From Escherichia coli (GTDB lineage Bacteria; Pseudomonadota; Gammaproteobacteria; Enterobacterales; Enterobacteriaceae): DNA of 64,000 nt. Position numbers: made by a program. Positions 40,192-40,893 of the stretch are shown piece by piece. The stretch lies in the NCBI RefSeq assembly GCF_965641715.1, contig NZ_OZ282453.1; one strand, given 5' to 3'. Positions within the stretch are counted from its first letter, which is position 1; each line of letters opens with the position of its first letter.

Positions 40192-40893
40192 TGATGGGCG
40201 GTATTCTGAAACGGCGATTGTCGTGAGAACAGAATGGTTGCACCAGAATACAGATATAAAAAAACCGACATGACAGTCGGTTTTTTTATTTTTTCCGCCC
40301 AAGACTTGGTGGTTCCGGGCAGAAATGAAACAGTCCTCATCTAGCAAGTGAATTATAAGTCAGGATGCCTACATATTCAAACAGCTATGTTGGCGATACA
40401 ATCCCGACGCTAGTAGTGATACTGCCTCAAGGGATTACCGCAGTGCGGAAAAGTACTTTTAAGTCCTGGTCAGGATACAGGTGGTGCTGATTCTGGTGCT
40501 CTAATTTGGAGAGAGGCAGTCCTCATCTAGCACATGAAGAAAATCATAGTTACAGGCAACGTAAGGGTAAGCTGTGATTGTCTTTCTCCCTTAAGGGAGC
40601 AACGGATGAAAACTTTTCTCGATAAAGTTCTCATCGTGCTTAAGGCGCTAATCGCGCAGCTGGAACTGATCCGTCAGTTTATTGAATAACTGAGGAAACG
40701 TAGCTAAGGCCGAAGGTTTACCACCTTCGGCCTTTAAAAAAACCGACATGACAGTTGGTTTCATATTTATTGCCAAAATGCACACTGTTCATGCCAGATG
40801 CGGCGTAAACGCCTTATCCGGCCTACGGTTAAGTTCAGTTTTGTAGGCATGATAAGACGCGCAAAGCGTCGCATCAGGCATCTGCGCATAACT

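Follow-up and report, generated by a model that had tools for sequence, protein, structure and literature searches.

A predicted DinQ/AgrB-family type I toxin-antitoxin cassette in the selU-ybbP spacer of Escherichia coli

What lies between selU and ybbP in an E. coli chromosome that has no Rhs element at the position where K-12 has the gene order rhsD-ybbC-ylbH-ybbD-ylbI-ylbG? We analysed a 64,000-nt stretch of contig NZ_OZ282453.1 (the window), in which the spacer between selU (39100–40194, plus strand) and ybbP (41108–43522, minus strand) contains no Rhs element, as the first-pass annotation of this DNA had noted, and no large ORF. The selU-ybbP locus is polymorphic for Rhs among genomes. 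From an extended, structured 5' region, a small ORF and a strong hairpin at the K-12 rhsD position, the first-pass annotation had proposed a type I toxin-antitoxin or small-protein locus encoding a peptide that resembles TisB; our analysis upholds the toxin-antitoxin assignment and rejects the resemblance. Our preferred reading, with a probability of about 0.9, is that this spacer carries a type I toxin-antitoxin cassette that is chromosomal, accessory and a member of the DinQ/AgrB (dinQ-like, dql) family; the whole cassette aligns with the agrA-dinQ region of K-12 (Table 1). Because the DinQ/AgrB family is known, the dql family having been defined in 2016 (Kristiansen 2016), and public E. coli annotations already name the ORF dinQ, the small ORF is an ordinary find. 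The Rfam AgrB model already detects the antitoxin. Our literature search returned no paper linking dinQ with selU, mnmH, ybbB or ybbP.

Table 1. Coordinates of predicted features of the selU-ybbP cassette, numbered from the first nucleotide of the window
Feature	Position	Strand	Details and basis
agr-like antitoxin sRNA gene (AgrB family)	40256..40345	-	predicted; Rfam RF02891, alignment with K-12 agrA/agrB
sRNA promoter	40352..40380	-	-35 TTGAAT (40380–40375), 17-nt spacer, -10 TATAAT (40357–40352)
toxin -10 box TACAAT	40397..40402	+	predicted by family alignment
toxin (dql) mRNA, ~330 nt	40409..40737	+	predicted; +1 G 40409 by homology
leader element 1, 5' arm of long stem S1	40409..40429	+	pairs with 40512–40532; MFE fold
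conserved leader core AAGTCCTG-N8-ACAGGTGGTGC and SL2 region	40461..40500	+	invariant across 24 family leaders
sRNA target and leader element 2	40507..40532	+	holds second 16-mer copy (40517–40532); predicted pairing
SL4 stem-loop	40544..40577	+	RNAalifold consensus, 24 family leaders
leader elements 3 and 4	40576..40599	+	element 3 (40576–40590) pairs with element 2 or SD
toxin ORF	40606..40689	+	27 aa MKTFLDKVLIVLKALIAQLELIRQFIE, DinQ family; NCBIfam, BLASTP, RefSeq annotation
toxin mRNA terminator hairpin	40706..40734	+	12-bp arms, 5-nt loop; position homologous to K-12 dinQ terminator
second copy of 40-nt hairpin repeat	40735..40774		with first copy flanks 478-bp cassette

The toxin ORF and the divergent sRNA gene

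The 27-codon ORF of the first-pass annotation is present, with the Shine-Dalgarno (SD) sequence AAGGGAG (40593–40599) spaced 6 nt from its ATG, and is followed by the 12-bp hairpin reported there (arms 40706–40717 and 40723–40734). Its product matched the NCBIfam model NF041472 (toxin_DinQ) at 39.6 bits (cut-off 30) over profile positions 1–22 of 22 and aligned with K-12 DinQ in BLASTP with 14/19 identical residues (74%, E 2e-7); the DqlB model scored it at 23 bits, below its cut-off of 35. In RefSeq, over 1100 genomes have this ORF annotated as dinQ. The amphipathicity attributed to the peptide is only moderate, with a hydrophobic moment of 0.38 versus 0.20 +/- 0.10 for shuffled sequences (5.6% of shuffles reach 0.38). 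DinQ, an inner-membrane peptide, is toxic and causes membrane depolarisation (PMC3567139), and by analogy the product of the selU-ybbP ORF, if over-produced, is expected to insert into that membrane and cause its depolarisation.

Upstream of the toxin gene, the minus strand at 40344–40256 matched the full length (1–84) of the Rfam model RF02891 (AgrB) at 53.6 bits, above the gathering score of 40. The resulting ~90-nt AgrB-like sRNA would extend from a predicted 5' end at about 40345/40344 to an intrinsic terminator at 40289–40256. Its gene does not overlap the toxin gene, is divergent from it and lies 262 nt upstream of the ATG; the same layout is found in five other family loci. An antisense promoter, for which the first-pass annotation had suggested a search, is present as a strong sigma-70-like site on the minus strand (10/12 consensus matches), the sole site that passed our scan of 40150–40850. 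It is placed 7 nt upstream of the sRNA 5' end, and the position of its -10 box relative to that end is kept in the plasmid and K-12 loci. The antitoxin sRNA is unannotated in the RefSeq record of strain D7 and was also missed in the first-pass annotation.

The bidirectional terminator described earlier corresponds, with corrected coordinates, to a perfect 14-bp inverted repeat (40256–40269 and 40276–40289) around a 6-nt loop. This hairpin was terminator-like in scans of both strands, and it serves both the 3' end of the minus-strand sRNA and selU on the plus strand. The hairpin core ACCGACATGACAGT occurs twice, as had been reported, at 40264–40277 and 40742–40755, each copy lying within a longer direct repeat of 40 nt (40257–40296 and 40735–40774; 83% identical, 478 bp apart); a 26-nt pattern over this repeat gave two matches in the window versus 0.00 expected. 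Read on the minus strand, the second copy forms a hairpin followed by seven U and is likely the ybbP terminator.

The other repeat of the first-pass annotation, CAGTCCTCATCTAGCA, lies exactly at the positions given for its copies (40331–40346 and 40517–40532). Allowing up to two mismatches, it gave two matches versus 0.02 expected, and it can be extended to 22 nt at 91% identity. Because the sRNA and toxin genes are divergent, the complementarity by which sRNA and mRNA would pair shows up on one DNA strand as this direct repeat of 16 bp.

Pairing, folding and promoter of the toxin leader

The first 25 nt of the sRNA were predicted to pair with the leader at 40507–40532 with -39.1 kcal/mol, or with -42.3 kcal/mol when 32 nt were considered (z -7.9 versus shuffles). 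This duplex contains 16 perfect base pairs, or 24 of 25 positions when G-U pairs are counted, with one mismatch. The first-pass annotation had suggested a search for complementarity to the translation initiation region; the predicted pairing with the toxin mRNA falls within the leader and ends 75 nt before the ATG, the same distance as in K-12 agrB/dinQ. In a cross-matrix of six distinct leaders the cognate sRNA gave the lowest duplex energy barring two cells, both in the K-12/IncI1 double-agr columns, which are artefacts of leader extraction. Co-variation between loci is also apparent in the homologue from Photorhabdus khanii NC19 (locus L052), where both repeat copies are changed at the same positions (CAGCACTCAGCTAAC versus CAGTCCTCATCTAGC). 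The continuous complementarity is shorter than that of K-12 agrB/dinQ (~32), and the energy of the cognate duplex is near that of K-12 AgrA (-41.9 kcal/mol), which does not repress dinQ. Pairing of the same sRNA with the canonical dinQ leader was predicted at -35.5 kcal/mol, versus -42.3 for its own target.

We compared 24 family leaders from at least ten genera. The conserved leader core gives a single match in the 64-kb window versus 0.00 expected, its GGUGGUG segment complements the sRNA loop CCACCAA, and base pairs in this region are supported in 19–24 of the 24 leaders. Seven outer pairs of SL4 are kept in 21–23 of the 24, and the five variable ones among them show four to five pair types each; SL4 in the window has compensatory pairs of its own. 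From the 24 leaders RNAalifold recovered SL2 and SL4 but, owing to poor alignment of the first 60 nt, neither S1 nor the SD hairpin; the latter two are drawn from single-sequence folds and duplex energies. The duplex between elements 1 and 2 (40409–40429 with 40512–40532) was calculated at -24.5 kcal/mol (z -5.4 versus shuffles). At the base of S1 (a/a'), the window has GCUAG/CUAGC, a compensatory variant of the family GUUAG/CUAAC, and locus L007 has GUUGG/CCAAC. In the MFE fold of the full-length mRNA, the SD is base-paired within the hairpin CUCCC-UUAA-GGGAG (40586–40599). Elements 2 and 3 can form a 14-bp duplex of -22.2 kcal/mol (z -6.3), and elements 3 and 4 one of -10.2 kcal/mol.

Based on these folds and on the characterised systems, we propose that the full-length mRNA would be translationally inert, with the SD held in its hairpin and with S1, in the folding model, masking the sRNA target and element 2 through the pairing of 40409–40429 with 40512–40532. 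Processing at the 5' end would free element 2 (40508–40521) to pair with element 3 (40576–40589) and so open the SD; the predicted effect of 5' truncation on the SD is small, P(unpaired) rising from 0.18 to ~0.30. Binding of the sRNA 5' end to 40507–40532 would close the SD hairpin again, probably with RNase III cleavage, and keep the toxin off. In K-12, agrB both closes the dinQ SD and guides RNase III to cleave (PMC5066626), and for the plasmid pair DqlB/agrB toxicity and rescue were demonstrated with compensatory mutations (PMC12365149).

For the toxin gene, no plus-strand site passed the consensus promoter scan of 40150–40850, and both the -10 and the +1 were placed by family alignment alone. 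The -10 box aligns with TATGAT of K-12 dinQ and TATAAT of the plasmid dql loci, and the -35 is weak (TATTCA, 40374–40379). The +1 follows from alignment with the mapped K-12 dinQ +1 (GUUAGC versus GCUAGU), whose transcript is 331 nt (PMC5066626). In K-12 dinQ a LexA box, CTGTATGATTATCCAG, covers the -10. A 20-nt LexA consensus with three mismatches was too strict even for K-12, and we used instead CTG-N10-CAG, which recovers the K-12 box. This pattern has no site in 40297–40620 of the window, where the only two sites with one mismatch are GTG...CAG at 40348 and CTA...CAG at 40369. Because its promoter has no LexA operator, the selU-ybbP copy is probably not SOS-induced, judging from the sequence, and the "damage-inducible" name is therefore probably wrong for it. 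That the copy is a DinQ paralogue freed from SOS control, in a precisely losable 478-bp cassette, with an sRNA that possibly cross-regulates dinQ, is as a whole quite doubtful. If SOS escape and cross-regulation of dinQ were both true, carriers would have an altered DNA-damage or persistence phenotype.

Distribution, decay and competing readings

The canonical dinQ is found, separately from the selU-ybbP copy, in 5422 of 5426 complete E. coli genomes, and the accessory copy in ~1315 (~24%). At least 80% of the cassette is retained at 95% identity or more in 1130 genomes, and ~185 carriers keep no more than part of it; we aligned one of these genomes, and there a 108-bp deletion takes the sRNA target, SD and start codon. 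From these partial cassettes and this deletion it follows that the toxin is dispensable and decays in some lineages. Strain LR-28 has one copy of the 40-nt repeat and lacks the cassette precisely between the copies, and strain BS-01 has an agr-only remnant adjoining Rhs. Outside E. coli chromosomes we identified homologues in Photorhabdus, Hafnia, Citrobacter and plasmids, together with one in Xenorhabdus that has no ORF. The second hairpin copy is absent downstream of the P. khanii homologue. A genome-wide pattern scan gave 86 matches, about half of them chance matches in high-GC genomes, which were left out.

These observations bear on the possibility that the window itself holds a decaying remnant, with the toxin silent or inactive in the source strain and at most the sRNA still made. 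We consider this unlikely, yet the most serious alternative. It would accord with the precise loss in LR-28, the BS-01 remnant, the ORF-less Xenorhabdus homologue and the partial cassettes, with the weak toxin promoter and shortened sRNA-leader complementarity, and with a rare substitution: codon 18 (40657–40659) is CAG (Gln) in the window and CTG (Leu) in other genomes. In searches with allele-specific 40-mers, the Gln allele occurred in none of the 5426 complete genomes and the Leu allele in 1315. Given this absence, Leu18Gln, which lies in the hydrophobic core, may weaken the toxin. Against decay, all functional signals are intact in the window (sRNA promoter, -10, S1, SD hairpin, SD and its 6-nt spacing, ATG, ORF and both terminators), and the 1130 largely complete cassettes and the 1315 genomes with the Leu allele also speak against it.

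It is very improbable that the true product is instead the 51-aa in-frame ORF at 40534–40689, which opens with an ATG at 40534 and appears under the name DinQ in public collections. This ATG has no preceding SD and is directly 3' of the sRNA target, and the N-terminal extension overlaps SL4, whose changes compensate at the RNA level and not codon-wise. The NCBIfam match within the 51-aa form is limited to residues 29–50. The dinQ product is itself a 27-aa GTG-initiated peptide and not the longer ORF (PMC3567139), and Dql peptides are frequently annotated with an over-long N-terminus (Kristiansen et al.).

The identification of the peptide as TisB-like, which would imply an SOS-type TisB/IstR-like module, can be set aside at the sequence level. 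The two peptides are comparable in length, in helical hydrophobic character and in hydrophobic moment (0.38 versus 0.35 for TisB), and a divergent non-overlapping sRNA is common to the tisB/istR and dinQ/agrB families (PMC8594479). However, BLASTP gave no alignment to K-12 TisB at E <= 100, NCBIfam at E <= 10 returned the DinQ and DqlB models only and not the TisB model, Pfam at E <= 10 gave no family match to the 51-aa form, Rfam at E <= 10 returned AgrB with no IstR match, and the CTG-N10-CAG scan found no LexA box. A conserved non-coding scar had been named in the first-pass annotation as an alternative. A scar of this kind, or terminator and REP clutter that Rhs loss left behind and in which ORF and repeats are chance products, would accord with the REP/naRNA4 elements that fill 40787–41100 and with the Rhs polymorphism, and is rejected by whole-cassette homology to dinQ-agrA/B, two independent curated-model matches over threshold (NCBIfam and Rfam), repeats far beyond chance and homologous loci in Photorhabdus, Hafnia, Citrobacter and plasmids.

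With the DinQ/AgrB-family cassette as the preferred reading, roughly one E. coli strain in four may have a second DinQ-type depolariser, one that is likely SOS-independent because the selU-ybbP copy has no LexA box. This would be relevant to dinQ/tisB deletions in persistence studies of non-K-12 strains. The genomes also offer a natural allelic series, comprising the intact cassette, the 108-bp deletion, precise loss, the agr-only remnant and Leu18Gln.

Relation to characterised type I systems

The closest characterised relative is dinQ-agrA/agrB in the arsR-gor spacer of K-12 (Weel-Sneve 2013; Kristiansen 2016). Both loci encode a 27-aa peptide with the common core DK-IVL-ALIA-LELIR and a divergent AgrB-family sRNA with an identical terminator stem (CCGAC/GTCGG). 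They also have in common an mRNA of ~330 nt (predicted for the selU-ybbP copy), the leader core, SL2, SL4, S1 and SD hairpin, and a terminator hairpin immediately 3' of the ORF. Unlike the K-12 locus, which has agrA and agrB, the selU-ybbP copy has a single agr gene, no LexA operator at its -10 and a shorter pairing stretch, and it is accessory whereas the canonical dinQ is near-universal. Its ORF starts with ATG and not GTG, its N-terminus is four residues longer, and its C-terminus reads QFIE in place of FLLQLLN. The peptide carries more charge than DinQ and has a lower hydrophobicity (mean H 0.26 versus 0.53).

The cassette likewise resembles the dql genes dqlA and dqlB of Enterobacteriaceae chromosomes and plasmids, of which 14 sequences were published and which strains may have besides dinQ (Kristiansen 2016). 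As in those genes, a dinQ-like leader goes together with the signature residues, the promoter is of the sigma-70 type and free of an SOS box, and an agrB-like sRNA lies divergently upstream; the C-terminal ELIRQFI(D/E) is common to its peptide and the DqlB peptides. Unlike plasmid dql loci, including DqlB/agrB of pOXA-48 (PMC12365149), it is chromosomal, and an addiction role is thus not obvious. The closest peptide that we found, VKAFLDKVLIVLKALVALLELIRQFID (22/27 identical), is encoded by the P. khanii NC19 locus, where a complete agr-plus-toxin cassette aligns and the direct-repeat/antisense logic is identical; this locus differs in its GTG start and genomic context as well as in both repeat copies.

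More distantly, zorO-orzO of E. coli O157:H7 and tisB-istR-1 have the same architecture, in which the sRNA gene is divergent from the toxin gene and does not overlap it, and the sRNA base-pairs with a lengthy 5' UTR whose processing at the 5' end is a prerequisite for translation, as in the dinQ type. The ZorO (MDTLTQKL...) and TisB peptides are unrelated in sequence to the selU-ybbP peptide and the sRNA families differ, but zorO leaders share the core AAGTCCTG-N8-9-ACNGGTGGTGC.

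The selU-ybbP spacer and its two genes

The selU-ybbP spacer of the window holds no large ORF and, as the first-pass annotation had observed, no Rhs element; K-12 carries rhsD-ybbC-ylbH-ybbD-ylbI-ylbG at the same position. We identified a cassette of the DinQ/AgrB family in this spacer, and we place the probability of this assignment and of the mechanism inferred from it at about 0.9. REP-type elements are clustered between the cassette and ybbP, and further Rfam matches above the gathering score lie elsewhere in the window.

Coordinates of features in the window
Feature	Position	Strand	Remark
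tRNA	5572-5645	-	Rfam, above gathering score
STnc480	27072-27138	-	Rfam, above gathering score
ES036, second copy	27164-27206	-	Rfam, above gathering score
allS	38105-39031	+	
selU/mnmH	39100-40194	+	
Perfect 14-bp inverted repeat	40256-40289	both	terminator score on each strand
AgrB (RF02891) match	40344-40256	-	full model length
sRNA promoter	40380-40352	-	TTGAAT, 17 nt, TATAAT; 10/12 matches
Toxin -10, TACAAT	40397-40402	+	inferred from family alignment
Toxin +1	G40409	+	inferred from family alignment
1:2 duplex	40409-40429 with 40512-40532	+	-24.5 kcal/mol, z -5.4
2:3 duplex	40508-40521 with 40576-40589	+	14 bp, -22.2 kcal/mol, z -6.3
3:4, SD hairpin CUCCC-UUAA-GGGAG	40586-40599	+	-10.2 kcal/mol; paired in MFE fold
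Toxin ORF, 27 codons	40606-40689	+	AAGGGAG 6 nt upstream
Toxin-side 12-bp hairpin	40706-40734		
Terminator core, recurrence	40742-40755		
REP-type cluster	40787-41112		
naRNA4 (RF02564), two full matches	40846-40924; 40947-41024		within REP cluster
ES036 match	41028-41070		within REP cluster
ybbP	41108-43522	-	facing allS and selU

The AgrB match, at 53.6 bits, exceeds the gathering score of 40. It ends at the inverted repeat, so the "bidirectional terminator" of the first-pass annotation, which was recovered in perfect form, is also the terminator of the AgrB-like sRNA; its stem CCGAC/GTCGG is common to this sRNA and to K-12 agrA and agrB. An antisense promoter had been suggested as a check, and the minus-strand promoter was the sole site passing the scan in this region, with a predicted sRNA start at ~40345. 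The 16-mer CAGTCCTCATCTAGCA occurs exactly where it had been reported (40331-40346 and 40517-40532; two matches against 0.02 expected with two mismatches allowed). Since the sRNA gene and the toxin gene point away from each other, sRNA sequence complementary to the mRNA appears as a direct repeat on one DNA strand, and the 16-mer is this repeat. Nucleotides 1-25 of the sRNA are predicted to form 24 pairs, including G-U, with leader positions 40507-40532 (one mismatch, -39.1 kcal/mol), and extending the sRNA segment to nucleotides 1-32 lowers the duplex energy to -42.3 kcal/mol, with z = -7.9 relative to shuffled sequences. From the end of the target to the toxin start codon the distance is 75 nt, as it is for K-12 agrB on dinQ.

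The 27-codon ORF and its Shine-Dalgarno (SD) sequence were likewise found as described. The encoded peptide, MKTFLDKVLIVLKALIAQLELIRQFIE, scored 39.6 bits on the NCBIfam model NF041472 (damage-inducible type I toxin DinQ; cut-off 30) and, with the related DqlB model, reached 23 bits, short of the cut-off of 35; no further NCBIfam family was identified at E <= 10. It is identical to K-12 DinQ at 14 of 19 positions (E 2e-7). The peptide had been likened to TisB. Since BLASTP returned no alignment with K-12 TisB at E <= 100 and a Pfam search gave no match, this resemblance is physicochemical only; with NCBIfam identifying DinQ, we rejected a TisB-like identity. The proposed amphipathic helix was retained in part, being only moderate, with a hydrophobic moment of 0.38 that 5.6% of shuffles attain. 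Judged from sequence, the ORF is to be moved from "TisB-like" to the DinQ family, the feature being real and the earlier observations accurate. RefSeq already names the ORF dinQ (e.g., WP_349808740.1, strain D7), and the annotated copies lie in the context allS-mnmH-[dinQ]-ybbP, as in the window. Because both genes pass their thresholds in NCBIfam and Rfam and RefSeq names the ORF, we class the locus as already known.

Predicted leader switch and the toxin allele

As described for dinQ in PMC5066626, the 331-nt primary transcript is inert, with elements 1 and 2 of the leader (the toxin mRNA 5' UTR) paired and elements 3 and 4 sequestering the SD. Removal of 44 nt allows element 2 to pair with element 3, which opens the SD, and AgrB binding to the element-2 region closes the SD again and directs RNase III cleavage (PMC5066626). 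The full set of dinQ-type elements is predicted in the window, and the aligned -10 and +1 positions imply a toxin mRNA of ~330 nt. The base of stem S1 reads GCUAG/CUAGC in the window and GUUAG/CUAAC in most relatives, a compensatory change. Across 24 leaders from >10 genera, seven outer pairs of stem SL4 are retained in 21-23, while its five variable outer pairs show 4-5 pair types each; SL2 pairs are retained in 19-24 of the 24. The model has one weak point: 5' truncation is predicted to raise SD accessibility by a small amount, from 0.18 to about 0.30.

The dinQ-leader pattern AAGTCCTG-N8-9-ACNGGTGGTGC (window 40461-40487) also matched loci encoding ZorO-type peptides (MDTLTQKLTVLIAVLELLVALLRLIDLLK), namely L049 (E. 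whittamii), L069 (Escherichia sp. MOD1-EC7003), L013, L020, L055 and L056. A downstream GACAGGCAGYGTAAGGGTAAG block is common to these loci and dinQ leaders. Because both features are held in common, the 5' UTRs of zor/orz and dinQ/agrB look homologous though the toxins are unrelated, a relationship that, according to a 2024 paper (PMC11264685), has never been proposed.

Codon 18 of the window's toxin (40657-40659) is CAG (Gln), in place of the family-consensus CTG (Leu) of other genomes. In 40-mer searches of 5426 complete E. coli genomes, the Gln allele was present in none and the Leu allele in 1315; the 27-aa Gln form occurs on 39 contigs of a larger collection. Placing the polar Gln18 within the hydrophobic core may make the toxin weaker. 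That the toxin is active in this strain we consider rather likely, with less confidence than we have in the family assignment.

Cassette boundaries, distribution and loss

The 12-bp hairpin behind the ORF and the recurring terminator core reported earlier were both located. The core is contained in a 40-nt direct repeat (40257-40296 and 40735-40774; 83% identical, 478 bp apart), whose copies flank a 478-bp unit running from the agr terminator through the toxin terminator; the hairpin-repeat pattern gave two matches against 0.00 expected. The second copy, read on the minus strand, forms a hairpin followed by seven U, and it is therefore probably the ybbP terminator. In strain LR-28 (L097, NZ_AP027512.1), a composite query of left flank, second copy and right flank matched in one piece at 100% identity, giving the order selU, single hairpin, ybbP, with the cassette absent. 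This precise 478-bp loss indicates that the 40-nt repeats mark the cassette boundaries and permit exact loss. The second hairpin copy is absent from the Photorhabdus khanii homologue, and the duplication is therefore specific to the E. coli site. It may have been produced at insertion or be left over from a tandem duplication.

The canonical arsR-gor dinQ locus was matched in 5422 of the 5426 genomes, and the selU-ybbP copy is therefore additional. The 441-bp cassette was matched in 1326 genomes (>=80% covered in 1130), and both flanks are present in 1317. The remaining ~4080 genomes, like K-12, diverge from the window a few bases past the selU stop. Roughly 185 carriers retain part of the cassette only. 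In SCU-482 (L005), the sole such genome aligned, 108 bp (40517-40624) are deleted between micro-homologous AGTCCTCATC and AGTTCTCATC; the sRNA target, SL4, the SD and the initial codons, start included, are lost, the agr-like gene stays intact, and this allele reads as antitoxin only. In Xenorhabdus beddingii (L060, ~2914, minus strand), a family leader runs straight into the 3' UTR and terminator without an intervening ORF, a further case of toxin loss in the family.

Beside selU in the Rhs-bearing strain BS-01 (L004 2395-2700, aligned to window 40180-40393) lies a degenerate agr-like remnant with the divergent promoter region. Homology extends to ~40393 and is followed by Rhs-associated sequence, which suggests that in this lineage the cassette is older than the Rhs arrangement.

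Relation to dinQ and dql loci

The dql (dinQ-like) genes were named by Kristiansen et al. (2016), who describe them on Enterobacteriaceae chromosomes and plasmids, sometimes alongside dinQ, and note that databases often give Dql peptides an over-long N-terminus (PMC5066626); a 51-aa ORF at the window locus fits this description. T1TAdb predicts antisense RNAs for dql loci (PMC8594479), and DqlB/agrB of pOXA-48 was validated experimentally by compensatory mutations (PMC12365149). We counted 1637 plasmid records of the family, mostly conjugative and annotated dqlB or dinQ. No link of dinQ to the selU-ybbP site was found in the literature searched. New but minor are the missing LexA box, the single agr gene, the cassette boundaries with precise loss, the deletion allele and the Leu18Gln allele.

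Over its entire length, segment 40240-40770 can be aligned with the agrA-dinQ region of K-12, sRNA, leader, ORF and terminator included. In all five further loci examined (K-12, IncX3, IncX1, IncI1 and Citrobacter plasmids), an AgrB match lies upstream of the toxin ORF and on the other strand. The pairing region varies between loci, and in a duplex-energy cross-matrix each distinct leader was lowest with its cognate sRNA, apart from K-12 agrA against the 'K12_agrB' leader and IncI1 agr-a against the 'IncI1_b' leader; these two are artefacts, because the leader extracts contain the other agr gene. The closest relative found, the P. khanii peptide VKAFLDKVLIVLKALVALLELIRQFID, accompanies a repeat that reads CAGCACTCAGCTAAC in both copies against CAGTCCTCATCTAGC in the window, a co-variation of antitoxin and target. 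On the canonical dinQ leader (L002), the window sRNA (40345-40306) has a predicted energy of -35.5 kcal/mol against -42.3 on its own target, part of this pairing being the conserved CCACCAA loop with GGUGGUG; cross-talk with canonical dinQ is conceivable.

In K-12 dinQ, the LexA operator CTGTATGATTATCCAG overlaps the -10 of the promoter; the window's toxin promoter lacks it, and plasmid dql loci have a plain TATAAT at this position. No CTG-N10-CAG occurs in 40297-40620, and allowing one mismatch yields just two sites, GTG...CAG at 40348 and CTA...CAG at 40369. The latter belongs to CTACATATTCAAACAG (40369-40384), a palindrome with CTA for CTG and an AT-rich spacer that overlies the -35 boxes of both divergent promoters and is probably non-functional. 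The window has one agr gene and dinQ proper two. K-12 also has the longer continuous sRNA-leader pairing; the duplex energy in the window is close to that of K-12 AgrA (-41.9 kcal/mol), which does not repress dinQ. The window's peptide carries more charge than DinQ and is less hydrophobic.
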